A DNA stretch of 64,000 nt, from NCBI GenBank assembly GCA_000004985.1, contig GG738884.1, one strand, 5' to 3'. A model generated the notes under the pieces. The model did no database searches. It was not told the origin of the DNA and saw only the letters and a list, made by a program, of their open reading frames with translations. Below, piece by piece: positions 866-64,000 of this stretch (position 1 is its first letter; every line of letters begins with the position of its first letter). The stretch is from Naegleria gruberi (Eukaryota). The position numbers and the translations under genes are program-made.

Positions 866-951
866 ATCAATTTGTATTTTAAGGGAATTTTCAATATTAA
901 ATAAGATTAGAAACTGTTTAACTTTCATGGAACTAAACCTTATATTAATTC

Positions 952-13960: not shown

Positions 13961-14008
13961 TTCTGTAAAATAAAATTATTGTAAATAGAAATCAATTATA
14001 AATACTAT

Positions 14009-20498: not shown

Positions 20499-20862
20499 TG
20501 TTATATATTAGTTTTTTTAGTGGTAGTATTAATGATGAATGATGGAGAGAAGAGGTTTTACTTTGTGTGCGGAGGTGTATCTGTTTTTACTAGTACAAAG
20601 TAAAAGGAGGAAGATATGAGGGTGGTTGTTATTTTTTTTCTCGACAGAAATTTTTTGAAAAGGCTCTCAACAAAATGTTGCAAGTTTTTCTTCTTGGCAA
20701 TTGTTGAAGTTATTTTGAAAGATTCACGAGTTGATGATGATTGTGTGAGGTGCAATGGAAAGTAATCAGAAAAGAATGGAAGGAAATTATATAGATAGAA
20801 TTTTACTATATTGTTAAATAGTTCATGATCTAATTTGAACTAATTTTGTGTTCAATTATTAT

Positions 20863-22660
20863 TTACTTATCGGAAGAATGAAGAGCATCAACGGAAGTAT
20901 CAATATTGTTAATCTCTTGCAATTCTGTCATTAGTAGAGTCATAAAGAGATCAGTTTTGGAGAAGACTCTCACATTGGATTGCTTGTCGTAAGGAGTTTT
21001 CTGCAAATTAACAATACACATCAGATTATTGACATTCATCTTGGGTAATTGAGCAGCTGGATTCACGAGCATTGAGGTTCCAAGAACAATGGATAGATCA
21101 CATTTCTCTGAATGTGAGATGGCACTCTCAAGTTCTTTTGGTGGCAAGGTTTCATTGAAATGTACAATGGTGTCAATTAGTTCACCTCCACAACTTTCAC
21201 ACAAACTACCAGTCAAGTGATCTCTAAAGTTTTCAACAGTTTTACAAACATCATATCCTCTCAAATATTCCTTCTTGCATTTCTTACATACTTCAAGGAA
21301 GCAATTACCATGTAATTCAGATAAGTGAGCTGGTTCAAGACCACTTCTTCTATGAAGACCGTCCACGTTGGTTGAAATAACAAACTTTACCAAACCAATC
21401 TTGACAAGATGAGAAACAGCATAGTGTGTAAATGTTGGAAGAGCTTGTTCAATTTCAATGTTCTTAATTTCATTAGCTTTTCCTTCATTGGTTAAAGTCC
21501 AACATCCTTTTGGTCCACGATAATCTTTTCATTGTGAGTATATAATTGACTATTGGAATAAGAAACTTACCTGGAATTTTGGCACTTGTGGAAATACCTG
21601 CTCCTGAATAAATACAACAGTGTTTAGAATTCTTAATTAGATCTGCCATTTGTTTTGCCTTTTCTTGTACAACTTGTTCTTCTTCTTCATATTCCTTGGC
21701 ATCTTCAGTAAGTCCTGTCACTGCTCCAATTCCTTTTCCAGAACCAACATTTTCACCAAAACCAATACAATCAAGAAGATGCTTTTCTTTTGTTTCAGTC
21801 TTGTTTAGTTTCTTGTCAAAATTCTTAATTTGATCCAAAAAGGAAGAAGAGACTGACTCTGTGGTAACTTGTGGAGTTGGAGTAGTTGTAGCATTAGAGA
21901 TTGGTTGAGAAGGAGGGACCGGAACACTTGTGCTCTTTGTAGTTTCACCCTTTTTCTTAATAACAGGTGTCATGAAATTTTTCATTTTCTTTTCAAACTC
22001 TCTTTGAATTGCATCCTTCTTTTCCTTCTCTTCAAAAGTTGAGACGTAACCACTTCCCTCACGAATAGCCACAACTGTTTCTAGACTAATTGTGTTTGGG
22101 CTGTTTGAAAATCTTGAAATGAACTGAAGCGAATTTTTCATATCTTTTCCCAATTTCATTTCCGACAAGGATGGTATATCAATTGTGAATTCTTGAAGAA
22201 TTTTGCCACTATCTGTTTCAATAGAGAACTTGGTATTCCTAATATTGTAATTGGAAACAATCTTCATTTGTGAAAGAATATCATTAAGATCAACAATGTT
22301 GCTAAATTGTTCTTCAGAGATGATAAATGCAATTCTGCAATTTTTCACAGAATCTAATTGAAGAGTTTTGACCTTTTTAACTCCAATAGATAATTTACAA
22401 TCTCTGCATTTCAAAAATTCAACAAAACCAGTGGTGATTGATTCAACATCAACAACCACAGTTGTATCCTTATTATCTTCCATTATAATTTTCATACATT
22501 TTTGTGCTTGAAGAAGAAGTGTTGATCTTTCGCATTGGGTAACATATACCAAATCTTGAGGAGAGAATTTGCTTTCTACCCTTCCCGATGAGTCATCTAC
22601 AACTCCCTTGATCATAAAAGGGGATTTTGGGGTGAAATTTAAGGTAGGTAATCTAGTCAT
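20863..22660 (-). CDS. Sirtuin (Sir2 family, class IV SIRT6/7-like catalytic core) with a roughly 380-aa N-terminal extension. Two exons: join(20863..21524,21571..22660).
   Basis: A 46-nt intron (21525..21570, GTAAGTTTC...GAAAAG) splits the NAD-binding motif: exon 1 ends ...GAGISTSAKIP and exon 2 continues DYRGPKGCWTL, reconstituting GAGIS..IPDYRGP.G.W. Downstream are the Zn-binding cysteines CKKCKK...CESCGG and VISTNVDGLHRRSG. Confidence 0.8.
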
Positions 22661-22977: not shown

Positions 22978-23050
22978 CGCCCACCGTGGGGGTCGAACCC
23001 ACGACCACAAGGTTAAGAGCCTTGCGCTCTACCGACTGAGCTAGACGGGC
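22978..23050 (-). tRNA. tRNA-Lys (anticodon CUU), copy A
   Basis: 73-nt cloverleaf. Acceptor GCCCGTC/GGTGGGC (two G-U pairs), D arm GCTC-AGTCGGTA-GAGC, anticodon arm CAAGG-CTCTTAA-CCTTG, T arm GTGGG-TTCGACC-CCCAC, discriminator G. Identical in sequence to copy B. Confidence 0.9.
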
Positions 23051-27881: not shown

Positions 27882-27954
27882 GCCCGTCTAGCTCAGTCGG
27901 TAGAGCGCAAGGCTCTTAACCTTGTGGTCGTGGGTTCGACCCCCACGGTGGGCG
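27882..27954 (+). tRNA. tRNA-Lys (anticodon CUU), copy B
   Basis: Same 73-nt sequence as copy A, in inverted orientation 4.8 kb away. Confidence 0.9.
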
Positions 27955-28083: not shown

Positions 28084-28089
28084 AAAAAC
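28084..28089 (-). terminator. Pol III terminator T-run of the SRP RNA gene
   Basis: TTTTTT on the minus strand directly after the last conserved 7SL helix. Confidence 0.6.
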
Positions 28090-28408
28090 ATTAGTCTGAC
28101 TCCCAGATTTCACTCTCTGATAGCTCATGCTCAGTTCTGCAATCTGACCATCCTACAGTGTGAAGGCTATGATTTGCTCAGTTATCCTGCCTCAACCGGT
28201 TCACCTTTCATTAGGACCCTAGTTTCTCCTTATTCATGGGGAGATACTATGGTCACACCGCTATTGGTCAGACAGAACATCGTCACCATATTGCTAACAA
28301 AGGAATGAGTCTGAAGAACCATCCCTTTGCCTGACGCTGTGGCAGAGAACCATAACAGCTACCTCCCTACAGTAGCCCAGCTTATCTATTGGGAACGATC
28401 AGTCGTTA
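28090..28408 (-). ncRNA. Signal recognition particle RNA (7SL/SRP RNA)
   Basis: The minus-strand read contains, in the same order as human 7SL: CTGGGCTACTGTAGGGAGGTAGCTG (Alu-domain CCCAGCUACUCGGGAGGCUG), AATATGGTGAC (AAUAUGGUGACC), and the S-domain helix-8 block GGTGAACCGGTTGAGGCAGGATAACTGAGCAAATCA (human GGUGAACCGGCCCAGGUCGGAAACGGAGCAGGUCAAAAC, with a GNRA loop GATA and an AGCA motif). Local GC is about 48%, against AT-rich flanks. It ends at a T6 run (pol III terminator). The 5' end is placed to within about 15 nt by spacing from the Alu-domain motif. ORF-track ORF 28075..28308 overlaps it and is spurious. Confidence 0.78.
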
Positions 28409-28550: not shown

Positions 28551-30130
28551 CTATTTTTGATCTAACAATGATTGTATGGTTTGTCTCCTCTTAGAAAACA
28601 TTTCCTTAATCTCTTGTATTTGCTTTTGTTCTTCTTCATCCATATTATTCAATTGTCTCTTCAATTCATCTACATTGAGGGCAGAATACAACTTTTTAAG
28701 TTGTTCCATTTCCTCATTATTTACTACTTTTGGTGTGTTATTTTCAACTTTTTTAGGTTGATGTTTCACCATAGTTCCACAATCATCATCATCATCACTG
28801 TCATCACTGTCAGTGCCACTATCAGATGAAGAATCATCCTTCTTCACTGGTTTCTTTGTTATTTTTGTTGTTCCTGTTTGATTATTTGTAGGCTTGTGTT
28901 GGACTAATGTGTCATATCCTTCATCAGAGTCAGAATCACTGTCACCAGAACTATCCGTATCAGTTTCTTCAGTATCACTTCCATTGTTATCATCATTATC
29001 TTCGGCCTTTTTCTTGAAATAATTAAATCTTCCTCCTGCTTCAGCAAATATTTGATTCATCTTTTCAATTAATTCTTGTAAAATTTTAGTTGATTTGGCT
29101 CGTTGAATAAATTTGTGTTTAAGAAGATTTTTAGATGATGGTCTTTCAGCTGGATCTCTTACTAAACAATAAGCAACAAAATCTCTAAATTCTTCAGACC
29201 ATTTTTCAGGGTTTGAAAGTGTTGGTGGAGGTCTGTTTGGAATCATGAAAATTGCACGCATTGGATGAATTCCATGAAGAGGTGGCTTTCCTTCAGCCAT
29301 TTCAATGGCAGTAATACCCAGTGACCAAACATCAGCAGTTCCGTCATATTCAGTTTCTTGAATTACTTCAGGTGCCATCCACTGTTATAATAATAATAAT
29401 AACAACACGTTAATATTATTTAATGAAGGTAATAATGTTAAATATAAAACAGTTAAAATCATTAAAATACTTACATAAGGAGTACCTATCACTGTTCTTC
29501 TCTTGGAAATTGTATTATTTAATTGTGCACTAACACCCTAAAGAAGAAAATCGGATCAAGTTGTAAATACAATGTATACTTACGAAATCAGCTAGTTTTA
29601 CATCTCCTTCATCAGTGAGAAGAATGTTTCCTGCCTTTATATCACGGTGAATCTTCTTTTGAGAGTGTAAATAAACAAGACCTTTCAATGCTGATGAACA
29701 AATAGCAGCAATTTGTGGTTCAGTCAACATTGGTCCAAGAACTGTAAGTAAATCCTGCACGGAACCTCCTCCACAATATTCAATAGCAATTTGGAGTTCT
29801 TGATCTTGTTTGTATGCTCCATAATAATTTACAATATATGGTGATTCACAAGCCTTTAAAATGTTAATTTCCTTCTCAACTTCGGCAATATCATTTTCAA
29901 CTGGTACACATTTCAATGCATAAATATGACCATCGTTTTTATTCATCACTTTCCAAACAACACCATATGAACTAAGTATCATCATAGTAAAAAAATATTA
30001 ATTTATAATAATACAACATTGTTTATATTATTAATAATCTAATGAAAGAGATCTCTTACCCTTCTCCCAACAACTCTAATCTTTGATACACAGTGTTGGT
30101 ATCAACTCCCGTTACATATAATGAAGACAT
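28551..30130 (-). CDS. STE20-family (MST/Hippo-like) Ser/Thr kinase with a C-terminal SARAH-like coiled coil. Four exons: join(28551..29381,29475..29537,29584..29971,30060..30130).
   Basis: Exon 1 (MSSLYVTGVDTNTVYQRLELLGEG) ends GG|GTAAGA. Across an 88-nt intron this reconstitutes the Gly loop GEGSYGVVWKV. Exon 2 holds VAIK-like ALKCV, HRDIKAGNILL and ends at ...KLADF|GTAAGT. A 46-nt intron leads to exon 3 (GVSAQLNNTISKRRTVIGTPY). A 93-nt intron leads to exon 4 (WMAPEVIQETEYDGTADVWSLGITAIEMAEGKPP...). The C-terminus ELKRQLNNMDEEEQKQIQEIKEMFSKRRQTIQSLLDQK resembles the MST1/2 SARAH helix. The acidic S/D-rich linker is typical. Total 450 aa. Confidence 0.85.
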
Positions 30131-31101: not shown

Positions 31102-34100
31102 TCATTTAGCTGGCTTTCTTGCAGTATTAGGAAGACTCTTCTTATTCTTCTCTTCATTCATTCTGTCAATTTCTTTCTTCTTTTCCTCTTCAAGAGTTTG
31201 TTCCTTCAAAGCAATAATCTGCTTTTGATTTTCAACAAAGCTCTCTTTCATGGATGTGGCTAATGTTTGAAGCTTTTGCTCTGTTATTTCATTAACAAGC
31301 TTTTCAAAGGATTTTGATCTTTCAGCTCTTTTCTCTTTGATTTGGGCAATAAGCTTTTCATTTTCTTCCTTCTCTTTTGCTTCTCTGTCTTTTCTATCAG
31401 AAGGTGATTCTTCTCGTTTTTCAATCTTGAGCTCGGCTCTAGGGGAATGCTCTTTTTGAGAAAGAATACGAGCAAGATTTTGCTTAATGTACTTTTCTCT
31501 TGCTGCTTTTCCCTTATCGGCATGTTGAGCAGTTGTAGTTTCCCACTCTTCTGTCATTTGGTCAATCTTTTGCTTTTTAAGGTTGACTTCCTGGAAAATA
31601 ATATTAGGTGTTGTGGAAAACATGTCCATAGAGTAGAATAAAGTACTTGCTGAGCTATTTTCACATCCTTCCACGTATTGACTTGCGAGTAGGACTGGTT
31701 TGTCTTGTTTGGTTGGTATCTTGGGAGGCTCCTTTTTGGCTTTTTGAGTTGTTGCTGCAGGTTTCTTTGCTGATGCTGGTTTTTTAGCATCCTTTTTGGC
31801 AATCTTAGTATCAACAACTACTGGTCTTTCATCTTCGAGCTTGAGATCAGTGAGTGAAGTGTTATTTGCCCTTTCTTTCAAATATTTTTGAAATTCAATC
31901 CCAGCATTCTCAAGTCTGCTCTCAAGATATCTCAACGATGTATCTTCATCTATTGCACAGACAAGTAAATATCCAATTGCTAATGTTTTAGTACTTGGAA
32001 ACACTACCAAGTTGGAGACTACAATCTCACTTTCATTATCAAATGTTTGGAATTCCAACAAAGATGTTGTACTATCATTTTCAACTTTAAATACAGACAG
32101 CTTAATAGGAATACTCTCACTAAGGAGGAGCCTAAAGCCCAAGTTGGCCTTCTCACCAGAATCAACTCTATACCTAAATAACTCTCGTTCCTGATTTGTG
32201 AAATATCTTCCCTGAAGTGGTAAAGCTTGTAAAGAGAGTGACTTGGCTACATCTAAATCGAAAACATCATTCTCTGATATTGTTTCTAAGGAGTAAGTGG
32301 TTGCTTCTAGATCTCTGTTAGGGCAAGCATAGCAGATTAGAGAATATTGCTGAGGACTTGGGAACAGTTTCACAGGGAAGATTCTACCATTGATTGATTT
32401 CACAACAGCTGTAGTCTCATTGTTAACAAGCATTAGATGAGTGAAGGGAAGAATGGAGATATCATCCACCAGTAATCGAGCACTAAATACTCCTTCCTTA
32501 TCAATTATTAATTGGTGGCTAGAAAGGTTTTGATAAATAAAAATAGTACATTATTCAATACTTACATGCTCCAAACTTTCCACTCGTTATTTTTGTGAGT
32601 CGGAGATGATAAGGCACCAGTTCTTTGTATGGATTGACTGAGTTTTGTTGTATAAATATCTTCTTGTTTACCAAAAGTTAATGGCTTTTCGCTAATAAAT
32701 TCGACATATTGATTCTCAATATTCGTAAATCTTATTTCGAAAATGTCAAAATCATCTTTACATGGAAGAGTTACAGGGAGGATGCTATCAAACCCAGAAA
32801 TTGTAAAGTCATAAATTAGTTTGCTAGGAGTTAGTTTCTTCCAATTACTGGCCTTTTGAATAGACACTTTTGGCTTTACTTCATCCTTGATTCCCATTAC
32901 CCGTACGAATAACCTAGATGTTTCTGTTACATAGAAAACAATTGGGCTAGTGGTGGTCACATGTTTTCCAAGGAAGGCAACTGTTTTAAATTGTGTAATT
33001 TCATGTGCAACATATACGCAGTCAAAGTAGTCTTGCAGTTCTTCCAAGTCAATCCAAAAATCTTTCATTCTTTTTTCAATTCTTCTATCTTGATAACAGA
33101 ATCCAATTTCAATTTCAAAATCTGCTGTCCAAATAGAAGAATTCTTGTAAGAGTATTTTCCACCCCAAGCAACATCATTTGAAATAATTCTTAGTAAAGT
33201 ATGACCTTTGAATACAGAAATATCCTCAATTCTGAATAAATTATCTTTTTTAAGTCCTTGTGATTCTATATCTACATCTTTTTTACATTTTAAAAACATT
33301 AGTTTTCTCTTAGTTTGATCGCAATCCATTGGTGCCCTACAAAGATATTTAACTAAACTGAAGGTAGATTTCCATTCCTTGTGTGATTGAAGGGAAAGTG
33401 TCAGAGGAGAGATTACATCTAGAATACTTTCACATGAAACTGGTTGCATGGAAAAGTCAGAAAATAGGCAAGAGAAGCACCACAGAGGATCTGTAAATGC
33501 CAAATGTTCTTCTCCATTTGAAAGAGCAATAATTCCTTTCAAAATTATTGAAGGCCAGAATTCATCATAGGGAGAAATTGGAAACATTATTTTACCATTT
33601 GCATCATGTGGGAGCTTATCATCTACTATTACAATTCTTTCTTTTCCTTTGTAACGAAGTTTAATGTAGTATCTTCCCCATGGTGAGATATCAGGTAATA
33701 CATCACTACCTGGTCGTTTTGGCCATATTCTTTCCCAAAGATAGGATCCAAAAGGAATCATTTCTTTGCATTCCTCAATTTGGTAAAGAGCTGAAACGAA
33801 TGCCTTGGTCCACCCTCCTTTGTTAGAAATGTCAAGAACTTTGGTGTATTTTTCAAAGTCTTCCACAACAATTTCTTCTTCATCACAATCCAAAGTCAAT
33901 TCTTGTTGAACAGGAACTGGTTCCTTTTCTTCAACTTTTTTAGTTTTTGATTTAGTTTCGGGAACTGAAGATTTTGGCGGTTCTTTTGCTTTTATCCTCT
34001 CGTAGTAAGGATGGGCTGGGAAGAGATCTCTAGATATCCTTGGTTCCCATTTTGATTTGATTGATTTCCATTCCTTGACTTGAGAAGAAAATTCCGAACA

Positions 34101-34418
34101 TTTTTCGTTGAACACTATTTCACTAGAATCCTTTGCAATAACATCTTTAAATGCATCCTCTGTTGTAGACCCTTTTTTCTTACTATTTGATGGAGGTCTC
34201 TTATTTGTTTGAGCAGATACTTCTTCAGGATCTCCCAATAATTGTTTATCCCTCTCCATTAATTGTTTTAAAACTTCCTCATTCCACTCTGGAAATACTT
34301 TTTCCTCATATTCACTACTGGAGTATATCGTATCGGAGAGAAGAGTGATCTCAACTTTGTCATTCTTTTTCCCTCCTTTGGATGGTGCTTTCTTTGAGAG
34401 TGAGGGTGATTTCGACAT
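31102..34418 (-). CDS. Calpain-like (CysPc-like) domain protein, probably a catalytically inactive pseudoprotease, with a C-terminal charged coiled coil. Two exons: join(31102..32518,32566..34418).
   Basis: A 47-nt intron (32519..32565, AT|GTAAGT...TTTCTAG|C) joins the two ORF-track ORFs in frame (...EWKVWSI|HQLIIDKEGVFSARLLVDDISILPF). The block WGRYYIKLRYKGKERIVIVDDKLPHDANGKIMFPISPYDEFWPSIILKGIIALSNGEEHLAFTDP aligns to calpain domain IIa ([48 protein letters not shown]). The catalytic QGxLGDCW motif is replaced by NKGGWTKAF, with no Cys. Total about 1089 aa. Confidence 0.55.
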
Positions 34419-36264: not shown

Positions 36265-39200
36265 ATGAAAGGTGGCAATCTCTCAGTATCTAAATTGGAT
36301 AATGACAGATACACTCAGCCACCAACAACACGATCACAACACACCATCTATTCAAGATCATCAACTCTTTTCATCATCATTCTAATAATTATTTTATTAA
36401 TTTCTTCCTTCTCGAGTCTATTCGTTCTCTCTCAATCGAACTATTGTAAAGATAAAACCTATCGATTCATCAGTGTTGTTCCTGATGAAGGTGATGCAAC
36501 CAATTCATTCAGTGGTGATAAATTAAAAACCTCCATCTCTATTGGCATTGATTATTTACGGGCTCAGGGAATTTTACCAACAGGAGTTTCCATTGAAAAT
36601 GTTTTTGTTGTTACAAAGAATGATTTATCGGGTGCTATTGAAAAGATGAGGAATTTAATTATGGTCAATGGAACAAAGGATGAAAGATATGTGGGAATTA
36701 TTGGAGCGTAAGTTTTTAAAGATGATTAATATTGATGATTATTAATGATGAATTTGTAATCGGAATTAAATGATTATATTCATTGATAATGATAACATCA
36801 TGTGGAGAATAGTTACTACAGCTATGAATCTTTGACGATTGCTTATGAAATTGCCTACGAATATCAAATTCCAATGATTTCGTATGGTTCTTCTACGTCT
36901 GTACTTTCGTATAACAGATGGTTTTATAGAGTGTAAGTTTTAGGAAGAATCAGAGATTATAATTGATTAATAGTATTCCATCTTCGTTAGCCATGACATC
37001 TGCAATGGTGGAATTTTTATATTCTTTGGAGTGGTCAACTATTTCAGTTTTGGCATCAAATGAGGTTTATGGAGTTGATTGTGCAAGGAATATTCAAGCA
37101 ACAGCTAAAGAAATTGGTATGACCATTGATAATGTATATTATTTCAAGGTTGGTGATCACCAAGAATTAGCAGATCGAGTTACAAAAATCAAAGAATCTG
37201 GAACCAAGGTGATTGTGACAATTATGACTTCAGATACTGATGCCACTTTTCTATTGGGAAAAATTAAGGAAATGCAACTCAACACTGAGGGATATATTTG
37301 GATGTTTGATGAAACTTTTGCCTATCAGCCTGGTATTTCTGCAAAGAATGTTTCACTCACATCTGATTCACAGGGAATGTTCTTTGTGGAATTGAATTCT
37401 GGGTTGTGGTCTAGTGATTTGTACTTTGTTGGAAAGTTTATGCAACAATATAATTATTCGAGTGTGGAAGAGACCTATTCACAAATTCAAGCTTTTGATG
37501 TAAGTATTATTAATGAAAATATAGAGTGATGTTAACGAATTACAGAGATTTGCATTCGACTCTGCTTTGAGTTTTGGTTATACTATTCGTGATATGTGTC
37601 AAAGTGGATTGGATCCAACTCATGGTGTTGCGATGGTTTCCTCTATTGATCAAGTATCATTTATTGGAGCTAGTGGAAAAGTTTCGTTTGACTCTTATGG
37701 AGATCGTTTGGGAGTTTATTATTCTGTAAATAATGTGGATGGAAACGAGGCCACCATTGTTGCTAAATGGAGCCAACGTGAATCTATAGTTTGGGACGAA
37801 TTTTTCTATGTAAATAGAACTCTCAGAGTGCCTTGGGGTAAAATCACAAATGTTCAAATCTTTTTGAATTCACCCCTTACAGGAAACAGATGGTTTTCAA
37901 TTCCATCAGTCAATCAGGTACCACCAGAACGTCACAGTCATACCATGTCTCTAGGAATTACAACAAATAGACTATATTTATTTGGAGGTAATTCTCAATC
38001 TAAACTTAATTTTGACATGTATTCTGATTTGTGGAAGTATGATTTTATCAGTGGACAATGGTCTAAAATGGAGGCTCTCGATGGATACTCTCCAAAGGGT
38101 AGAGAGGGCCACATAATGTGGACTGTTCAAGCTGGTGTCTATAGCACGGATGAAAGAATCATTATATTTGGAGGAAAGTCAGGTTCTTACACAGATGACA
38201 TGCTCGAATATTCTACTCTCAGATCTCAGTGGAGAACAATTTCTCCAAATTCATACAAGCCATTTGCGAGATACTCAGCCAAGATTGCTCAGTACAAAAA
38301 CAAAGTCTACATGTTTGGAGGTTTGACCTATAATGGTGTAAGAGATGATATGTGGATATGGAATAATGAGAATTATCAATGGAGTAAGGTTAACCAGACA
38401 TCCTCGGCTGTTTGGCCTTATGGTAGATATTCTCACTGTATGTCTGTTTATACATACAATGGAAATCCGTATATTTTACTTTTTGGAGGAAAAGGTCCAG
38501 CTGGTGAACCTTTATCTGACATGTGGCGTTTTGACATGACTCAAGAAACTTGGGCTCAAATAAGTCAAACAGGAGATGTTCAAGGAGCTGTGTTTGATTC
38601 TACATGTGTAGCCACTGATAAGTATTTATATGTATTACATGGAAAGACTGTAAAAGGAAGTCAACAAATTATGTTCAAGAAGGTAATGAGAGCTGACTTG
38701 CCGTTCACACAAACATCAGTCAAATGGAAAGTGACAGAGTCCAATCTCAGCGATCCTAGGTCAAATGTTGCTTCTGTTTTCTTTTCCAATTATATTATTT
38801 GGTTTGGTGGTCTAGGTCTAGATTATGACTTTAATGATTTTTATTCATTGAATGTCATTAATCAAAAGATTGTTAAAGTGAATAAGAACTTTTTTGCTCC
38901 TAGCCCTGTAGTAGCTCACACCATGTCTACCTTAGGTGCATCCCTTTACTTATTTGGAGGATATATTGGTGATGACATTCCTTCCAATCTACTCTACAAA
39001 TATTCTATTGCATCCGAAACGTGGTCTATTGTCGATACTCAAACTAAACCATCACAAAGATCATATCACACCCAAGTGACACTTGGTGATCGTATTTGGG
39101 TGTTCGGTGGTATTGAGTCTTCATCAAAAGTTTATTCTGATATTTGGACCTTTTCTGCCAGTGCTGATTCATGGACTCTTGTTGAGCCTAGAACATCTGC

Positions 39201-41848
39201 AGTACCTATAGCAAGATATAAGCATGCAATGACAAGAAATGAAACCCATTTGTTTGTAATTGGTGGTAGAACTCAAACAACTCAATTGACAGATATTTGG
39301 GCTTTTGATACAGAAACGAAAACTTGGTCGAAATTCAAGCAAATTATTACCTACGCCTATACAATAGATTGCTCTGCAAAATGGTTCTCTGCAGAAGAAA
39401 CAGGATCATACCCTGCTATTTTACTATTTGGTTGTCATGATTTTTCAGGTACGCCAACAGCTAATTATTACAAGGTTGAGATAACTGACGTTAACAATGA
39501 CCAGTTCAGGCTATCATACAGTACATTGTTTAGAGAAATAGAACCTAGGTCAGGGTTGGTAGCTGTCAAGTTATCAGGATTCAAATCAATGATATTTGGA
39601 GGTAGAATGGATCAAGAATTGTTTAATACCTTATTGCTTGTTGAGGGATCTACTGGAAACACAAGTGTGATTCTTCCTCCATTGACTGAGCATGAACTAC
39701 CTTCTGCTAGAGCCTACCTTTCCTATTCATTTATTGGAAATTCAATTTACATATTTGGTGGTGTTGGTGCACCAGAAGGAACTGAATTCATTTTACCATC
39801 TCTTAGAAATGGTGACATGTGGAAATATAATATTGGCAATGTTTGTAAAGGCAAAGATTCTACCAATTGTTACAAATGTGGACCAGGAACTTATGAAACC
39901 TATGGAATGTGCGAATTTTGTCAGCCAGGGTCATATAATGAGCAGTATGGAGCCATTGATTCATGTACAGCATGTCCAAAAGGATTTTACAGTGATGTAT
40001 ATGGAGCAAATCATGCTCAGTTTTGCCTTCCTTGTGAGTATGGTACCTATTCTGATAAGCCAGGAAGTACCTATTGCTTACCTTGTCCAGATGGAGCTGT
40101 TTGTCAACTTGGTGCTATCCAACCAGTCTATAACTATACAAAGATTGCTTACAGAAAATCAAATCAACCAGATGCCTACTTTTCCAAAGAAGTGGAGAAC
40201 AGTAATGCTATCAAAATTGAAGCTGGTATTATTGCATCAATTGCTGGCTCTCTTATTCTGATAGTGTTTTTCTGTTGGAAAGTTTTTAATATTCCAAAAG
40301 AAAACTGGATCAAGAGAATGGACTTTTTCTTTACTGAGAGACACAATAGATTAATGGGTACAATGATCAAAAGAAGATCAATTGTTGGAGCTTGTTACAG
40401 TTTTATTGTTTTGGTAGCGTTCTTGGCCTACATTATTGCACTTGTTGTCCCTTACTAGTAAGTACAATTATTTCGAATATTTTATTAGAAAATTTTATTT
40501 TAGCAATTACGGAAATTATGTGGAAAACAGAAGCTTGGTTCCAAACCTTGCTTTGGATGACGAATTCAAATCAGATGCAGTGATTAGCCTAAAAATTCTA
40601 GGTTTTAACGGTCGGTGCACTGAGGGAAATCAAACAATTATTGACAAGCCAATGAAATGTCAAGAGAAGCTGTCCATATTCCTGGAATCAATTGATTATG
40701 ACAATTCCACGAAAGGTAGTAATTTCGAATATGATTGTCAAATTGACGATGATGGAGCTGGTTCGAGAAGTTGTATTGTTTCTATGAGATTTACTAATTG
40801 TGCATTTGCCAAAGATAGAAAAACAGCAACTATTGGTATTAAGGTTGGTGGTAGTAATGCATTTGCCAATGGATATGAGTATCAAGTAGATTTTGCTTCT
40901 GCCTACATTGATGTTTATATGCCTGAAAAATTACCACAGAGATCAGTAATTAATGGCACAATTTACTCTGATGATAACACCTTCTTTAGAGGAACCAAAA
41001 CTCCAACCCAGGTCAATTTCCAATTAATTCAAAACAGATACACAATTCCATCTAAAAATATTAAGCAAACAGGCTATGTCATTGATTTCCAAGATCAGTC
41101 ACAGGGAGACGTTGTTGAATCTCTATCATTTAGTCACGAAAATGGCCTTTATTTTGTGTTGAGTTTTGAAAAGCTATCCACAACACTTGAATTAGTTCTC
41201 TCTGAGAAGAAGGTTATCTTTGTCTTTTTAACTGACATGCTTGCTTCACTTTCAGGTATTTTCTCATTGACAGCATTGACCATGTCAATAACTGAATTTT
41301 TCATTTTCCACTATAAGAGAATTAGAGCTAATTTGATTGCCTATAGAAAGAAACATGCCAGTATGGATACCAACTATTTATTGGACGAAGTAGTACTTCA
41401 GGGAACTGAATATCAAGCAATGAAGAAAAATCTCAATAGACAAGACGAAGCATTCTACGATGACATTACAATAGCCAAAATTTATCACAAGAAGGGAATG
41501 AGAAGAAATGTTGTGTACATTCCTTCCAATGCTCTAGAGGATGAAGAACTCATCGATGCTAACCAACATGAACTAGTCACTGAAAAACCACCCTCAACAG
41601 AAACCTACATGGAAATGCACGAGAATGCAGACGAATATGCACCACCAGTTTTAGCCAACAACCGATCTGTCTCAATTTTCTCCAAACGAAAGAAGAAGAA
41701 TTCAAAGTCTGAACTTGCAGAACCATTCATTACCGAAGAGGAAATGGATTTGGATGATCTTGTCAATGAGCAAGACAATAATTTCTCACTCAATGACATC
41801 AAAGGACCACTCACATCTTCAACCACAGCAGTACCTTACTACAAATAA
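36265..41848 (+). CDS. Large multi-pass receptor-like protein: signal anchor, ANF-receptor/PBP1 (Venus-flytrap) domain, about 11 Kelch blades, ephrin-receptor-like Cys-rich modules, at least 3 TM helices and a cytoplasmic tail. Five exons: join(36265..36707,36822..36932,36974..37499,37546..40457,40504..41848).
   Basis: Splicing: GC|GTAAGT (114-nt intron); exon 2 ...IPMISYGSSTSVLSYNRWFYRV ends GT|GTAAGT (41-nt intron); exon 3 ends GAT|GTAAGT (46 nt); exon 4 ends TA|GTAAGT (46 nt). All phases are consistent, and ORF-track ORFs 36265/36963/37567/40436 fall in one frame. The PBP1 signature ISYGSTS..LS...F.R..PSD-like is present (ISYGSSTSVLSYNRWFYRVIPSSLAMTSAMVEFLYSLEWSTISVL). The repeated LFGG/IFGG motifs count 11 (LYLFGG, IIIFGGK, VYMFGG, ILLFGGKG, IWFGGLG, LYLFGGY, IWVFGGI, LFVIGGR, ILLFGCHD, MIFGGRMD, IYIFGGVG). 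Cys modules: CYKCGPGTYETYGMCEFCQPGSYNEQYGAIDSCTACPKGFYSDVYG...CLPCEYGTYSDKPGSTYCLPCPDGAVC. TM segments: IASIAGSLILIVFFCW, IVGACYSFIVLVAFLAYIIALVV, IFSLTALTMSITEFFIF. Total 1778 aa. Confidence 0.7.
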
Positions 41849-41960: not shown

Positions 41961-43228
41961 ATGTCATCGTCAACCTCTGCTGTTGATGCCAAGCAAAATT
42001 CAAAGGCATCCGAAGAAGAACGACATGATCAAGTTTCCCTCGGAGAGTATTTTGTTGTGTTTACCTTTATGGCTTTCTCTCTATTGATACATTTGTACTT
42101 ACCATTCCCAAGTACCTATGTTTTCAAAGCCTACTTTATTTATTTTGTTTTCCAATATGCACTGGCTAGATTCTTACCTGGTACTATAGTAAAGGGTCTG
42201 CCTTTGGAGGATGGTACTGTGTTGGAGTATAATTGTAATGGACTGCAAGCTTACTTGATTACGTTATCTTTGTTTTTGGCTGGTGGACATGTTGGTTGGT
42301 GGAAGTACTCAATTGTCTATGATCACTTGTTGGAATTTGTGGCTGTTACTAGTATTTTCCATTGGTGTTATTGGTCAATTGTTTTTATCAAAGGAAGAAT
42401 GTTAAAGAAGAGAGAATATAATGATGGATTAATTAGAGAAGTTTGGTTGGGTGCTGAAAGAAATCCAAGAATTCTTGGAGTTGATTGTAAATTATTCTTT
42501 GATGGAAGACCAAGTTTACTCACATGGGTTGTTGTTGCATTCTCATATGCATCAGTTCAATATGAAAAGTATGGTGCCTTCAGTACTCCAATGCTTATTT
42601 ATTTAATCTTTTCATTCTTGTACATGTTGGATTTCTTTGTAACTGAGAATCAATTCATTACTGGATTCGAAATTTATCAAGAAAGATTTGGATTTATGTT
42701 ATCTTGGGGTAACTTTGTTTGGTAAGTAGTGACTATCTCAATACTCAATTGACCAAATTATTTAGGATGCCATTTGTCTGTACTGCTCAAGCTTATTATC
42801 TTATTGAGTGGAGTGAACTTCCAACATGGGGAAGCATTGCTGTTTGTCTTTTGTGGTTATTTGGTTATGTTGTTGCTAGACTTTCAAATGCTCAAAAGGA
42901 TAAATTCAAGAGAGAACCAAATGCTCCATTCTTGGGTATCAAGTCAAGGTATATTGAAACTCCTGAAGGAAAGAAGGTTCTTACAAGTGGATTCTGGGCA
43001 TTGTCTCGTCATCCAAATTATTTTGGTGAATTGGCAAACTCACTTTCATTCGGATTGATGTGTGGATTTGATAAGGGCATTTTCCCTTACGCTTACAGCA
43101 TTTTCATTTGGACCTTGTTGTTTACAAGATACGAAAGAGACCACAGAAAGATGGCTGTCAAGTATGGTGCCTCATTTGACAAGTACTGTAAAGAAGTCAA
43201 GTACAAGATCATTCCATATTTATACTAA
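41961..43228 (+). CDS. Sterol reductase of the ERG4/ERG24/7-DHCR/LBR family (delta14-, delta7- or delta24(28)-sterol reductase). Two exons: join(41961..42721,42766..43228).
   Basis: A 44-nt intron (42722..42765, TG|GTAAGT...TTTAG|G) joins the ORFs in frame (...SWGNFVW|MPFVCTAQAYY...). Multiple TM helices. Family signature GFWALSRHPNYFGEL plus the C-terminal ...YKIIPYLY are typical of sterol reductases. Total 407 aa. Confidence 0.8.
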
Positions 43229-44353: not shown

Positions 44354-44807
44354 TTTTTTTAAAGAACTTAAAGTTCATATTTCATTACAACAAGTTTACA
44401 ATGAATATAATCATTCTTGGGGGCCAAAGACTTCGGAAGGACATGGTTTCCTGAACTGTTTGCATAAATGTCATACGACACGATTCCTGATACTTGTCAT
44501 TTATGAAATAATCAAGAAGGCTACTGAATATTGGCCACAATTGCAAATGATTATTGCCATACTTGTATGTAATGCAACCAGAAATATCTCTCCAATAAAT
44601 ATGTCAATGTATTGGGAACTGAATCGAATACCAAGCTCAATTTGGCCATTTTTAGAGCCAAAGTCCTGTTTGTATTTGTACTAAATAATGGCGGGCCTCT
44701 TGCATAATTCCAAATACACATTAGCACTCTTTTAAGGTAATGAATATTCGATTCATCATTGCCCTTTTCTTTAAACGCATCATATGGAAAGATAAACAAA
44801 CAACAAC

Positions 44808-45494
44808 TTGAAAAGAATGCAACAAGAATATCAACCAACTACCACCAACAGCACTACTCAAACAAAAGACGAGAAAATCGTCAACAACACTACTAACCCA
44901 CCACTTCAAAGTGCGCAATCTCCAACTTTCATTAGTACTAGTTTAAAATCTTCATCATCGGTGGAACAATCAAATAGTAGAAGAAGTTCTGTGGATTATC
45001 TGCGTGAGGTAGCTGAAGTGGGTCAACAAGATTTAAATGAAAATGCCAGCCGTCAAACTGATGCCAACACTCTTATTCAAACATTTATAGACATGGTAAA
45101 CATGGAGGATGAAAATTGGAAGAAGAGGAAGAGAGACCCAAGCAATAATAGTGAAGAAGCAACTACATGCAATGTTGACCAACATGAGCATGCATGTTAT
45201 GACCAGCATGCTATTTGGGATATTATACCTCAAAAGTTTGCACATGTAAAATTGCATGCACATGAATTACCTTCAACTGAGTTTTGTAAGATAATGTTTC
45301 TGTATGGATGGGCCTATTCAAAGTATTTGGTGCATACAAGAGAAATGAATGCTGGAATCACCCAAAGCAAGGTATCCTCGCCTACCTCACCAGTTCTATC
45401 GCAGGATGGGTCCAGTGACGATTCAACTTCAAATATTGTTGAGCCTCCACAAAAGAAACTAGCTCGCAATCCCAACACAAGTAAGCTGGAATAA
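44808..45494 (+). CDS. Hypothetical S/T/N-rich acidic protein (228 aa)
   Basis: ORF with a low-complexity N-terminus. No domain recognised. Confidence 0.35.
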   Translation: MKRMQQEYQPTTTNSTTQTKDEKIVNNTTNPPLQSAQSPTFISTSLKSSSSVEQSNSRRSSVDYLREVAEVGQQDLNENASRQTDANTLIQTFIDMVNMEDENWKKRKRDPSNNSEEATTCNVDQHEHACYDQHAIWDIIPQKFAHVKLHAHELPSTEFCKIMFLYGWAYSKYLVHTREMNAGITQSKVSSPTSPVLSQDGSSDDSTSNIVEPPQKKLARNPNTSKLE

Positions 45495-45529: not shown

Positions 45530-45602
45530 TGCTGACGGACGGGATCGAACCGGCGACCAATGGCTTATTAGACCAACGCTCTACCGACTGAGCTACGCCA
45601 GC
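45530..45602 (-). tRNA. tRNA-Ile (anticodon AAU)
   Basis: 73 nt. Acceptor GCTGGCG/CGTCAGC (one G-U), D arm GCTC-AGTCGGTA-GAGC, anticodon arm TTGGT-CTAATAA-GCCAT with anticodon AAT at 34-36, T arm GCCGG-TTCGATC-CCGTC, discriminator A. Confidence 0.85.
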
Positions 45603-47208: not shown

Positions 47209-49597
47209 TTATTGTTTTTCTTTTGCCTCTTTCACTCTCTTGTAAAGAATTTTGAGAGCATTTCTTGCAGTGATTGGAATGGATGATCCTGATTTGCCCA
47301 ATAAGAAGCCAATAATTTCAACTGCGATGGAGAGTGTGGAACTAGCACTCTTATTTTGCTTTTGTTGGATTTGTTGGGTGATTTTCTCTTGTGTGAATTC
47401 ATCTGACATTAAGGCTGCAATGTCAACTTTATCCAAAGTCAACATTCTGTAAATAGCAGCCCCTAGGAAACTAATAGGAGGAATTTTACTCTTCGATACA
47501 ATCCACCAATCTTGAAAAATTAATAATCAAAATAAACAGTATAAACTTACCAGCAATACGAACACGAATAGTTCCTGAAGATAGTTCCAATGTCTCTATT
47601 AAAATATTTTCCTCCTTAATATTTCCGTATTCGAAACGAGCCTCTTCCAATGAATTAAATCCTTCCAAGGTGTATTTCAGTAAGGAGAGAATCATTCTAG
47701 TGCTAAGTGATATTTTCTCTTTCATAATAGTTGCAACGCTGCCATGGCTATAATATGGCAGAGTGAATGCTAAATGGTGAACCTTTTTAACTTTTTGCTT
47801 GTTGATTGCCTCTGGTTTTAAAATCTCATAAATTGGGACAAGATTCGATTTTTCAAATTCCTTCACCCTTTTCAAAGTCAAAATGCTTTCAGACAAATTT
47901 CCTTCTGCCTTATTACCTTTAAAGTTCAAGTATTTGATGGCAATCTTTCTAGTTTCCTTATTAAGTTGCTTTTCTTCAGCTAGAAATGTCATAGAAATCA
48001 ATTCAGCTGATTGCTCCTTATCAGATTTAAGTTGTCTTGAAATTTTATAGTGGTCAATGCTTGATATTAAACTAGATTCGTTGATTTCTTGCTTTTCCAC
48101 TCTTTCCATCATCTTGATTTTAATTGGATTGGACATTTTGTGGAAATCATGCTCAGATGGATCGAGCTCAACATAATCTCTGCAGTCTGTATCAAAGACA
48201 TTAATCAGCACATCATTCTTATTAATAGAAAACTTTTCCTCAAGCAATAATAGGAAATCAGAATATCCACACTTATCTAACATTGACATTTTCTTTTTTG
48301 TGCCATTGAAATCAACAATGAAAACAATATTATTATTCGATGTCTTCTCAAGTGTTTTCATATAAATTGAAATTGGAGAGGAGTTAGTTCCAGTGAGGAG
48401 GAGTTCTATCTCGTTTTGAACTTTGAAAAATTGTTTTTGTAAACCGATCGAGTTGAATTGAAAAGTACTAAACTCCTCAATAGCACTTGCATGCATGATT
48501 GCAAACTCCTTTTCCTGTCTGTTAATAATCTGTGAGATACAATCAAGTACCAGAAGTGTGCTTTTCTCCTTTTGCTTTTCATCATTTTCACTCGATTGGA
48601 TAACAGAAATTCGTGAAATCAAATACCTAAATACAATACCAGTAGCATAGCTAGAGAGAATGAACAGATAATGTGACCAGTAGGAACAGAACTTTGAGGC
48701 ATCGATGAATAAATTTCTCTTTGTAAAGAAAGAATCATAATACACAGAGTAAAATTTTTGTGGAACTCTTTCCACAATACCTTTCAAATAGCTCAGAAAG
48801 GAAGCCTTTGTTAAATCATGTACAGAGGTGTCTATGACCATGTCCAAAAACCTTTCCATTAAATCACGTGGGAAAACCTCAAAAAATTCCTCAATACCAA
48901 ACTCTTCAAAATTATTAAAAACAGAAAAGGTTATGACATATAAACGTGATAACTCGTTAGTAGTGTTCCCTAGCTCTTTTAACAACAATTCAAAAAGTAT
49001 TTTAGTTCTAATAACCAGTTCAACCTTGAGCTCTTGTATGGCGTATATTCTTTGTGATTTGATACCACATTCATAACAGGCCTCTTGAAAATCTAATCCC
49101 CTCTGCATATGTTTGTAAATATTTAACATGTTCAACACTATCATAAATACTACCTCTATATTATCTCTCAAATCTAGTATGTACTCAATTTCTTCTTGAC
49201 ATTTCTCTCTTTTCTCTAATGAATTGTTGAGATTGAGTTGAATTTCAAGTAAATCTGAAACTATTTCCTCCAATGATAAGTGATAACAGAAAGTTAGATC
49301 AAGTACAGTGTCAGTACCAAATCTACATTTCCACAGCATGTTAACTCTTGTTTGAGTTTCAACAAAAGGTGAGGCGTATTGTGATTTGTAATATGTCAAA
49401 ACTTCATTCCTGGCCATGTGGTGAACAATTTCCGTTCCTTCAATTCCATCAATTTGTTTTTCTTCATCTGGAACATCGTACAAGTTCACAAACCTATCAA
49501 TATTGATAGCAGTAGAATTATTAGTGGTGGATGATCCGATCTCGACTGAACTAGATACATATGTTCGAGGAACAACATGTCGTCCATTATACAGCAT
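47209..49597 (-). CDS. Hypothetical 782-aa protein with a C-terminal degenerate (pseudo)kinase-like region. Two exons: join(47209..47510,47551..49597).
   Basis: A 40-nt intron (47511..47550, G|GTAAGTTTAT...TTTCAAG|AT) fuses ORFs 47486..49597 and 47209..47445 in frame (...GTIRVRIAD|WWIVSKSK...MLTLDKVDIAALMSDEF). The C-terminal region has YGNIKEENILIE, reminiscent of HRDLKPENILL with the catalytic HRD lost, which suggests a pseudokinase. Confidence 0.5.
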
Positions 49598-54166: not shown

Positions 54167-54485
54167 TTATCCTGATTTGAACAGAAGAATGGCAACTTGC
54201 CCTAAGTAAAAGTAGATAAAATGTTTAGCTAAACAGATTTGAGTTTACAATAATTCGAATCAAATACTTACTTTCATGTGTGACATAACTTCCAAAGTTT
54301 CTTCCAACAATACAATGCCATGTAGGGTTATATTTCTTATCGAATTCCTTCTTTATGTGAGCAGCAATATCCTTTTCAATATTGAATTTATCCAAGGCTT
54401 GAGAGGCAACATCAACAGCTTCACGTTGCATGTTTTCTTCCATATCAGCGTTTTTAATGACAGCCTTCTTACTTTCTGATGACAT
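54167..54485 (-). CDS. DYNLL: Dynein light chain LC8 (DYNLL). Two exons: join(54167..54228,54272..54485).
   Basis: Exon 1 encodes ...[64 protein letters not shown] and ends A|GTAAGT. After a 43-nt intron, exon 2 gives [20 protein letters not shown]-stop. This is colinear and near-identical to metazoan LC8 (...[27 protein letters not shown]). Total 91 aa. Confidence 0.9.
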
Positions 54486-54744
54486 CTTTGTTAGTATATT
54501 GAGTTAGTTGTTGTTGTATTTTTTTCTTTGTTGTTTGTATTGAAAATTATTGTAGTTGTCTCAGTTTAATATATTTCAGAATTGGCGCCACTTTGTAGTT
54601 GACAAATGCAAAATTACTTTCGGAAATGAGTAAAACAGATTGTTGGCGCCAAACTACTAGTCATACAAAATCAAACCTTATTCAAAATTATTAGATTCCG
54701 TAATAAAATTCGAATGTTGGTTATTATCTACAATTAAAGTTGTA

Positions 54745-55716
54745 TTATTGAATGAGACATTTCTTCTTAACACTTCTTTCTAGTGCTTCCATTAAATCTT
54801 CTCTCTTAACGCAGACATCATTGAGACATGCCTCCTGTGTAAACTCGCTGTGAAATGGTAACATTGTTGGGCTAGGTTCTGATGTGAGATTGAATACTTT
54901 GTAAAATGAAAATCCAATATCTTTGAGTGATTGCTCAATTCTCTCTTGAGAAACGAGATGTGGACCACTTCCTAAGGAATTTAATATTACAAGGCAGGGA
55001 AATTTGTAGGTCTTTTTAAGTTCCAAACAGTATTTCAACCCATTAATCATGTATTGGAATGATTCCTCATTATCTGATCTACAAATGGAAAGTGCACTTT
55101 TAAATTTAGGTGTTTGGGGTGGATCAGCATTTAAATAATCTTTTAAGGTGTTAACTTTAATTTCCTTAATAGAAAAAGTCATGAAAAAGTCAACACACAC
55201 TTCGGTACGAGTATCGACAATGTCTGAATCAGGATTAGTGCTGGGTGTGGAGCTACCTTCAATCATTGAAACAATCTTGTGTTTTTCACAACCATCGTCT
55301 GAAATCAATCCACAGTCATAATAGGTCATTATTGAGGCAACAATAGAAGATAATATTGGTCTATAACTAGCTCTCTTCTCCTTTACAGCCTTTTTAAGGA
55401 GAGAATTGTTGGCATGACAAAGACCAGCAAATAAACTTTTCATATTTCCTTTGAAATGTTCATCAATAAAGTTCTGATAATCCTTCATCCACTGATCATC
55501 CAAATTAAATATTTGTTTGATTGCCATCCTCCAAAATCTATTCAGCAAATTCGTCATCTGTTTGTTTTTGCAATAAACCAATTCCAATTTACAAGCCATT
55601 CCGATATCATTGGTCAATAGGTGCTTCCTCCAATTATCTTGAAACACATCACAAAGTAGGAAATCAACAATAGACAAATGAATATCTTCTGGCAGATCAA
55701 AGAAAGTCTTTTCCAT
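54745..55716 (-). CDS. Hypothetical protein with an N-terminal F-box-like motif (323 aa)
   Basis: The N-terminus LPEDIHLSIVDFLLCDV is F-box-like. No other domain recognised. Confidence 0.45.
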   Translation of the reverse strand: MEKTFFDLPEDIHLSIVDFLLCDVFQDNWRKHLLTNDIGMACKLELVYCKNKQMTNLLNRFWRMAIKQIFNLDDQWMKDYQNFIDEHFKGNMKSLFAGLCHANNSLLKKAVKEKRASYRPILSSIVASIMTYYDCGLISDDGCEKHKIVSMIEGSSTPSTNPDSDIVDTRTEVCVDFFMTFSIKEIKVNTLKDYLNADPPQTPKFKSALSICRSDNEESFQYMINGLKYCLELKKTYKFPCLVILNSLGSGPHLVSQERIEQSLKDIGFSFYKVFNLTSEPSPTMLPFHSEFTQEACLNDVCVKREDLMEALERSVKKKCLIQ

Positions 55717-56276
55717 TATTTTTTTATTGTGATGATGAACTTTGATTGTTTAGTGCGATAATAGGGATTGTGTTCATCCAACATGATCAATCTAATAACC
55801 CAAGCAACAATATCAACTAAAATTTTCGTTTCTCAAATCTTGATAGATTATGCATAATCTCTATTCATTTGGGATGATGAGGTGGCCTAACAAGTTGAAC
55901 AAAACAAAGACGAACATACAGCAAACAAGTTGGAAATGATCAGAAAAGGTAAAAAAAAAACTCTTGCTGTACAGAGAGTGCACAAAGCCTTTATTTTGTC
56001 GGTTGCATCAACTTGTAAAACTTCATCATCAACATCACAACAATATTGTGTGTTCTCTCGTTCAACAAATTATTACGACCATCATTCTTTTAGAACAGTT
56101 TTAGTGGTGCTATCAATATATTCCAAACTCACCATTGAATAATTTCACTCACAAACCGCCGTTTTTTCCTTCCGTTAAATTTTTCAAATTTAATTTAATT
56201 GCAAACGGAAAAGTAATAAGAAAAGGCATTTTCTCTCTTTGATCATCTTCATCATTTTAGTAGTAATAAATATTAC

Positions 56277-57971: not shown

Positions 57972-57979
57972 ATTTAGTT

Positions 57980-63528: not shown

Positions 63529-64000
63529 ATGTCAATTCTTTCGTATGATCCCGAAAATCGGATTGAAAAGATAATTTCAAATTCTACCTATTTATTTGAT
63601 AATACTTACGGATTTCAATTTATCAGCATGGCTAGTTCCTTTCGTGTGGTATGTGATAAATTCTTACAAAATAGGAAGATAATATTTTCAGTTGCACCTC
63701 TTTGGAGTCAACAATTATGCTTGTTTCGTCGGAAAAGAATTAGAGGGTGAGCAAGATTTATACTTTATCAATGTAATGGAAGAGGAAATCATTGGAACAT
63801 CTGCCAATATCAACTCTGTAGTTTTGCTTGTCCAACACAAAAAGTCAAAGAGAACCAGAATTTTTATTAGAGAACCGAAAAACCATCTTTCTAAAGTTTA
63901 TAATACACACAACATTGATGGAATTGAGTGGAGAGAAGTTTTGGATTTGGAAACTCTGTTATTGGATGGTGAATGGATAATTACTTGTTCATGCTCTTGG
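63529..64000 (+). CDS. Partial gene running off the window: small globular protein, at least two exons, join(63529..63648,63692..>64000)
   Basis: Exon 1 (MSILSYDPENRIEKIISNSTYLFDNTYGFQFISMASSFRV) ends GTG|GTATGT. A 43-nt intron is followed by exon 2, open to the window edge (LHLFGVNNYACFVGKELEGEQDLYFINVMEEEIIGTS...). The function is not recognised; a longin/roadblock-like fold is only a guess. Confidence 0.35.

Follow-up and report, generated by a model that had tools for sequence, protein, structure and literature searches.

A class of 40–48-nt spliceosomal introns in a 64-kb window of the Naegleria gruberi genome

We analyzed a 64,000-nucleotide (nt) stretch of the Naegleria gruberi genome (contig GG738884.1 of assembly GCA_000004985.1, here referred to as the window) and focused on the 46-nt segment 37500..37545, which interrupts a gene for a receptor-like protein. 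This segment and others like it in the window are, with a probability of roughly 0.9, ordinary U2-type GT-AG spliceosomal introns of N. gruberi nuclear genes. Altogether 18 introns were accepted in the window, and 12 of them (67%) make up a short class of 40–48 nt. An initial annotation of the window had likewise read these segments as introns forming a tight short-length class, and the joining of reading frames, Pfam domains, RefSeq proteins and orthologs all support that reading. Among related species the positions of these introns are conserved and their lengths are not.

The host gene of the focal intron lies at 36265..41848 on the plus strand and encodes a 1781-amino-acid receptor-like protein (ANF-receptor/Kelch/transmembrane) in five exons (36265-36707, 36813-36932, 36974-37499, 37546-40457 and 40504-41848). 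Over 99% of its length the protein model shares 55% identity with the Naegleria lovaniensis protein P0006, and it is 41% identical to the Willaertia magna protein P0007. Excision of the focal intron (37500..37545, plus strand, 46 nt, phase 0, GTAAGT...TTACAG) joins frames of 179 and 970 codons. The Pfam ANF_receptor match (11-287) crosses the resulting junction as one stretch and is unbroken across 36933..36973 too, so that two junctions of the receptor fall within it. We threaded the ortholog proteins onto their own genomic loci (L001 for N. lovaniensis and L002 for W. magna) and then made a three-way alignment. All four receptor introns proved to match N. lovaniensis introns in alignment column and phase, with conserved and ungapped flanks. 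The focal intron coincides with a 140-nt N. lovaniensis intron between the flanks QAFD/RFAFD (the slash marks the junction). The introns 36708..36812 (plus strand, 105 nt, phase 2, GTAAGT...GAATAG) and 36933..36973 (plus strand, 41 nt, phase 2, GTAAGT...TAATAG) coincide with N. lovaniensis introns of 111 and 61 nt, respectively. The last one, 40458..40503 (plus strand, 46 nt, phase 2, GTAAGT...TTTTAG), joins frames of 977 and 447 codons, is shared with a 65-nt N. lovaniensis intron and also with a 44-nt W. magna intron, and has the conserved flanks VVPY/YNYGNYVENRSL. For the focal intron, an acceptor at 37524 was also considered and rejected: the resulting 25-nt intron would add 7 residues that are present in neither ortholog. 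A search of the receptor model against a collection of 5.8 billion proteins retrieved no N. gruberi protein, only the N. lovaniensis and W. magna orthologs.

We further examined the whole window with a joining test, in which two open reading frames (ORFs) of at least 40 codons each are rejoined by excision and the shortest joining length is scored. GTAAGT occurs at 26 sites on the two strands; 12 of these sites rejoin ORFs, 9 of them at 40–48 nt, while 78 decoy hexamers matched in composition gave a mean of 0.6 joins at 40–48 nt and a maximum of 4. Within genes, 13 of the 16 sense-strand GTAAGT sites are intron donors. The hexamer is also scarcer than expected (26 sites on both strands versus about 44 from base composition), and this suggests that it is avoided in exons. 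Moreover, four spliced models, covering seven introns including those of 46, 46 and 48 nt, are exactly equal to RefSeq proteins, and for nine introns the independent annotation of N. lovaniensis and/or W. magna has an intron at the matching alignment column and phase. All 18 accepted introns have GT...AG ends, and their excision restores the frame and gives a coherent protein, as seen in ORF joining, continuous Pfam domains and ungapped ortholog alignments. One could still suppose that the segments are not introns at all and that the flanking ORFs represent distinct genes, pieces of pseudogenes or products of assembly errors that shift the frame. Prokaryote-style gene callers do give the flanking ORFs as separate proteins, and such pieces are found in ENA/Logan contigs (P0010, P0012, P0013 and P0015), which is the fragmentation by splice-unaware calling that the initial annotation had foreseen. 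However, single Pfam domains and motifs span the junctions (DF/G, GTPY/WMAPE and the whole of LC8), the RefSeq models are exact, N. lovaniensis and W. magna have conserved intron positions, and each short segment begins with GTAAGT or GTATGT and shows the canonical GT-AG ends. We therefore regard this supposition as extremely improbable and effectively refuted.

Twelve short introns had been listed in the initial annotation. For 11 of them the donor and the AG acceptor lie exactly where they had been placed, with GTAAGT donors or, at 63649, GTATGT, and the lengths given were right (46 nt five times, then 47, 41, 44, 40, 43 and 43 nt). Six of the 11 are on the minus strand, namely those starting at 15319, 21525, 29538, 32519, 47511 and 54229. 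Independent support was obtained for 10 of the 11, the exception being 63649..63691. The twelfth, 17349..17394, had been described as having a GTGTAA donor, and it proved spurious: no GTGTAA is found at or near it, the segment falls in an open frame that runs for 672 codons without interruption and belongs to a model identical to RefSeq XP_002674351.1, and excising 46 nt would destroy that frame. Thus, six of the seven introns that had been counted at 46±1 nt stand. A real 48-nt intron, 9167..9214, was absent from the list, and the range of 65–247 nt given for the remaining introns is correct.

The other introns of the window are distributed over further genes. The intron 9167..9214 (minus strand, 48 nt, phase 0, GTAAGT...TCATAG) gives a spliced model identical to RefSeq XP_002674441.1; a 51-nt alternative with the acceptor at 9164 is not the RefSeq form and has no entry in the protein collection. 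In the BRO1-domain gene (14009..15605, minus strand, with a BRO1 Pfam match), the intron 15319..15364 (minus strand, 46 nt, phase 1) has the column and phase of introns in N. lovaniensis (129 nt) and W. magna (54 nt). Two plus-strand introns belong to a SAM-like gene whose spliced model equals RefSeq XP_002674351.1. The first, 15882..15970 (89 nt, GTATGT...TAATAG), shares its position with a 249-nt N. lovaniensis intron, and the second, 16069..16315 (247 nt, phase 0, AT-rich, GTAATT...TTATAG), shares its position (DKK/VYKIF) with one of 189 nt. The sirtuin gene contains 21525..21570 (minus strand, 46 nt, phase 1), and its spliced model equals RefSeq XP_002674445.1. Three minus-strand introns interrupt a STE20-like kinase gene: 29972..30059 (88 nt, phase 2, GTAAGA...ACTTAG), 29538..29583 (46 nt, phase 0), which splits the DF/G motif, and 29382..29474 (93 nt, phase 0), which falls at GTPY/WMAPE. 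The spliced kinase is exactly RefSeq XP_002674446.1, and the Pkinase Pfam match (1-263 of 263) runs as one stretch over the three junctions.

The calpain-like gene (31102..34418, minus strand) has the intron 32519..32565 (minus strand, 47 nt, phase 2), which joins frames of 621 and 471 codons and shares column and phase with a 50-nt N. lovaniensis intron. In the ERG4/ERG24 sterol reductase gene (41961..43228, plus strand), the ERG4_ERG24 Pfam match (44-407) is unbroken across 42722..42765 (plus strand, 44 nt, phase 2), and this intron has the column and phase of a 93-nt N. lovaniensis intron, with flanks identical over 22 residues. The shortest intron, 47511..47550 (minus strand, 40 nt, phase 1), joins frames of 688 and 99 codons in a kinase-like gene (47209..49597, minus strand); its spliced product aligns without gaps (RVRIA/DWWIVS) with the W. 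magna ortholog, which is intronless there. The gene for dynein light chain LC8 (54170..54503, minus strand) contains 54229..54271 (minus strand, 43 nt, phase 1), and the spliced product matches Pfam Dynein_light from 1 to 86 of 86 as one stretch (E = 9e-43). ORF joining also gave 62668..62732 (minus strand, GTAAGA donor), which measures 65 nt with the acceptor at 62668 or 131 nt with that at 62602, both in frame. The probable intron 63649..63691 (plus strand, 43 nt, phase 0, GTATGT...TTTCAG) is in a gene cut off by the edge of the window, has no Pfam domain around it, and was recognized by consensus signals and ORF joining. No identical database entry was found for the models of LC8, ERG24, the calpain-like protein, the kinase-like protein at 47 kb and the BRO1 protein, and their support comes from orthologs. 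Further GT..AG candidates at 11541..11862, 13885..14012, 44565..44873, 55708..55919, 56048..56334 and 57888..57983 were rejected for poor donors, lack of homology support, or overlap with an opposite-strand gene.

The 18 intron lengths are 48, 46, 89, 247, 46, 88, 46, 93, 47, 105, 41, 46, 46, 44, 40, 43, 65 (or 131) and 43 nt, with a median of 46 nt and a mean of about 68 nt. In the short class, five introns have exactly 46 nt, one has 47 and one has 48 nt, and the others have 44, 43, 43, 41 and 40 nt, so 7 of the 12 are 46–48 nt long. The six longer introns have 65 (or 131), 88, 89, 93, 105 and 247 nt. Between the short class and the next length, 65 nt, there is a gap, and no intron is shorter than 40 nt; within the 64-kb window the lengths thus form a narrow peak just above a lower bound. 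The density of 18 introns in about 30 genes agrees with the 1.7 exons per gene published for N. gruberi (PMC8296547).

Several points weigh against our overall reading of these segments. First, the initial annotation had put the modal length at exactly 46 nt, and here the short class stands while the exact mode is no more than suggestive: five of 12 short introns in one 1-nt bin has P ~0.06 under a uniform 40–48 model. Second, the sample is small, with 18 introns from 64 kb, and the genome-wide mode could sit a few nucleotides away or the peak could be broader. Third, the window mean of 68 nt is far under the mean of 203 base pairs (bp) published for N. gruberi (PMC8296547), and this gap could come from an atypical window, a long tail or mis-modelled long introns. 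Fourth, our search for a branch-site motif gave no strong consensus, and 4 of the 12 short introns have no match to [CT]T[AG]A[CT]. Fifth, for 62668..62732 and 63649..63691 the evidence consists of consensus signals and ORF joining. Finally, we infer the removal of the segments from messenger RNA (mRNA) from homology and annotation.

With only 12 short introns sampled, the short class may be real and its mode of exactly 46 nt a small-sample accident, the true peak being a broader hump of 40–55 nt or centred elsewhere. The chance of five or more introns in one bin noted above favors this explanation, as do the lengths at the W. magna locus (44, 46, 48, 49, 53 and 54 nt), which repeat no more often than chance would allow. 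It is less easily reconciled with the concentration of five introns at 46 nt and seven at 46–48 nt, or with an environmental contig that retains 46 nt at 21525. This contig (L003, k127_351834 of ENA ERZ929261) spans 20645..22140 on the minus strand and is 99.1% identical to the window at 20751-22140, and thus comes from an N. gruberi-like strain in an environmental sample; the 46-nt length is kept there despite one substitution inside the intron. Overall, we consider a small-sample accident possible but doubtful. In addition, L003 differs from the window by 11 substitutions, a 1-nt deletion in a sirtuin exon at 21012 and about 35 nt of missing intergenic sequence (20716..20750), and its gene calls are broken at the sirtuin intron.

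The short introns resemble each other at their ends. Donors are GTAAGT in 11 and GTATGT in one of the 12, and the 5' end in common reads G-T-A-A/T-G-T-(A/T)-T; the longer introns have GTAAGT, GTATGT, GTAAGA or GTAATT. These donors fit the extended, GTRAGT-like consensus of U2-type introns, which is complementary to U1/U6. At the 3' end, a mildly T-rich stretch without a marked polypyrimidine tract is followed by (T/A/C)AG. The short introns are AT-rich, with a G+C content of 15–30%, and the upstream exons end without AG bias. Candidate branch sites (TTGAT, TTGAC, TTAAC, CTCAC and GTAAC) are found about 7–18 nt upstream of the acceptor in most introns. Many introns of near-equal length with the same first six bases might also be expected from the recent spread of a mobile introner-like element family, but once the splice signals are set aside, the 12 short introns resemble one another no more than shuffled controls do (mean pair score -2.3 versus -3.0 +/- 0.5) and therefore do not form a mobile family. 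Most of them, moreover, stand at positions common to N. lovaniensis or W. magna, and for this reason the introns must be old. We see next to no likelihood in such a spread, and ordinary introns remain our reading of the class.

We then compared lengths at the orthologous positions described above. In W. magna, no intron is present at the receptor positions 36708, 36933 and 37500, and the orthologs of the calpain-like, ERG24 and SAM-like genes are not in L002. Position and phase are kept between the species, with GTAAGT donors, and length is not kept. In eight of the nine pairs with N. lovaniensis, the N. gruberi intron is the shorter one (105 versus 111, 41 versus 61, 46 versus 140 and 46 versus 65 nt in the receptor, 46 versus 129 in the BRO1 gene, 47 versus 50 in the calpain-like gene, 44 versus 93 in ERG24 and 89 versus 249 in the SAM-like gene); the exception is the second SAM-like intron, 247 versus 189 nt. 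Since the orthologous introns are longer in eight of nine cases, length is a property of the species or genome and not of the intron position, and the initial annotation was right to treat the class as a genome-level property. These same-position N. lovaniensis introns are 1.1–3 times longer despite a smaller genome, and the median intron length reported for that species is 80 bp (PMC6125883). At the two shared positions the W. magna introns have 44 nt (receptor) and 54 nt (BRO1), and further introns with GTAAGT donors in L002 measure 46, 49, 35, 48 and 53 nt; W. magna shows a short-intron class of 44–54 nt similar to that of N. gruberi. A stated intron-length mode for N. gruberi was not found in the literature, where the figures we met were the 203-bp mean, the 80-bp median of N. 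lovaniensis and intron counts (PMC6142364 supplement). We tentatively propose, at somewhat under even odds, that the preferred intron length in Heterolobosea has shifted by lineage, that the introns of N. gruberi and apparently W. magna sit mostly on a floor of about 46 nt, and that the published 203-bp mean hides this and may itself be too high because of a long tail or mis-modelled introns.

Some further differences were seen at these loci. The N. lovaniensis receptor ortholog has two extra introns, L001 12500..12627 (128 nt) and 15006..15116 (111 nt), where the N. gruberi gene is continuous, and N. lovaniensis NOG1 has an interruption of about 94 nt at about L001 18103..18189, where the N. 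gruberi gene is also continuous. These three interruptions suggest that introns were either lost in N. gruberi or gained in N. lovaniensis. In W. magna, the donors of two annotated introns deviate from the consensus: GTTCTG (79 nt, L002 12739..12817) and GTCAAC (64 nt, at gene positions 945..1008 of the gene L002 8028..9672). The GTTCTG intron coincides with a 19-residue gap relative to both Naegleria orthologs. Both of these introns are possibly annotation artefacts.

As for the cause of the peak, the two splice sites would be paired across the intron (intron definition), an arrangement to which the introns appear suited because they have a strong donor, a probable branch point near the acceptor and no polypyrimidine tract. 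The length class would then represent the smallest spacing that lets U1/U6 at the donor and U2 at the branch site act on one intron, with a floor made up of perhaps 28–36 nt between donor and branch point and about 10 nt more up to the acceptor. Introns could be driven onto this floor by a bias toward deletions, by selection for compactness or by the two together, which would leave a sharp peak just above it. Because no strong branch-site consensus emerged, this spacing argument is put forward conditionally. Retention leads to a premature stop in all 16 introns examined (a set without 29972..30059 and 62668..62732), and mRNAs with retained introns would thus be truncated in their product and probably cleared by nonsense-mediated decay. 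Among the 12 short introns, a single one is a multiple of three in length, and it carries an in-frame TGA.

It has to be considered whether the peak is an optimum under selection, for splicing efficiency, export or detection by nonsense-mediated decay, and not a passive pile-up on a steric floor. The shortage of lengths divisible by three and the premature stops are in keeping with such an optimum, ciliate short-intron classes have been reported with the same pattern (PMC5014332), and 46 nt is unchanged in the environmental strain with a substitution inside the intron. However, one of 12 against an expected four of 12 has P ~0.05 and is a trend only, and lengths at orthologous positions vary freely (41–46 versus 61–140 nt), which argues against a position-specific constraint. 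We hold a selected optimum to be unlikely, and a pile-up on a minimal spacing may be the better account of the peak.

The initial annotation had also taken the DNA as probably that of a compact amoebozoan. The window has a G+C content of about 34% and is gene-dense, and three of its intronless ORFs are end-to-end identical to RefSeq proteins: a valyl-tRNA synthetase (ValRS; 50454-53477; XP_002674360.1), an ABCG-type transporter (3066-8270, minus strand; XP_002674440.1) and the ORF 25438-26577 (XP_002674353.1). All three RefSeq twins are from N. gruberi NEG-M, on a scaffold of 363,092 bp. Because of these identities the amoebozoan attribution is wrong; the lineage of N. gruberi is Discoba, Heterolobosea. 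Three transfer RNA (tRNA) genes are present at 22978..23050 (minus), 27882..27954 (plus) and 45530..45602 (minus), namely two for tRNA-Lys(CTT), with equal scores and on opposite strands, and one for tRNA-Ile(AAT). A signal recognition particle (SRP) RNA gene at 28084..28380 (minus) matches Rfam Metazoa_SRP over its full length with 96.8 bits. A full-length gene for the gamete fusogen HAP2-GCS1 lies at 11963..13960 (plus; Pfam E = 2e-105) and stands in synteny with the HAP2 genes at the loci of W. magna and N. lovaniensis; no identical database entry was found for its plain 665-amino-acid ORF.

These observations have practical consequences. Pipelines for Naegleria or related metagenomic contigs must permit introns with GTAAGT donors down to a length of about 40 nt if genes are not to be split. 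For the receptor, LC8, ERG24, the calpain-like protein, the kinase-like protein and BRO1, public N. gruberi models may be missing or built differently, or may need revision. The length class adds a Discoba lineage to the eukaryotes with a species-specific minimal-intron peak and raises no new question by itself. If the lineage shift proves true genome-wide, Naegleria and Willaertia would offer a compact natural system in which to ask how the minimal or optimal length of introns is set, with spliceosome geometry, indel bias and surveillance by nonsense-mediated decay as candidate determinants.

Among known systems, Caenorhabditis elegans is known to have a short-intron class with a mode of about 47 nt. 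The two classes are alike in a sharp peak at near-equal length, in being AT-rich, in showing no clearly recognisable branch-site consensus and in presumed intron definition. They differ at the splice sites: C. elegans relies on U2AF binding to a strong 3' acceptor (UUUUCAG/R) and its donor is weaker, whereas N. gruberi has a near-invariant GTAAGT donor and a plain NAG acceptor with mild T enrichment. Since the two lineages are unrelated, the likeness in length is convergent. Fission yeast and other fungi are known to have introns of about 40–60 nt with GTAAGT or GTATGT donors. N. gruberi resembles them in donor consensus, in candidate branch points close to the acceptor, in a polypyrimidine tract that is slight or absent and in length range, but fungal introns usually have a clearer CTRAY branch consensus, while N. 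gruberi has only loose TTGAT, TTGAC, TTAAC and CTCAC. In signal architecture, then, the N. gruberi short introns are closest to those of fission yeast and fungi, and in length to the C. elegans class.

The short-intron peak is therefore a known kind of genome property. The novelty implied by the initial annotation does not hold, because species-specific sharp peaks of short introns are textbook knowledge, the genome was published in 2010, several of the introns had already been annotated, and at least three of those of 46–48 nt are already in RefSeq models. In surveys of about 1,000 genomes, the distribution of intron lengths is handled as a standard genome feature (PMC6157073). Short-intron classes of ciliates include those of Paramecium, with a mode of 25 bp, and Tetrahymena, at about 56 bp (PMC5014332), and the extremes are the 15–16-nt introns of Stentor and the 22–27-bp introns of myxozoans (PMC13644364). 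Like N. gruberi, the ciliates have narrow species-specific classes in which positions are conserved and lengths are uncorrelated between species, lengths divisible by three are depleted, retention gives in-frame stops, and short introns have strong splice sites, as expected from intron definition. Compared with them, the N. gruberi class of 40–48 nt is far less extreme, and its depletion of lengths divisible by three (1 of 12) is just a trend.

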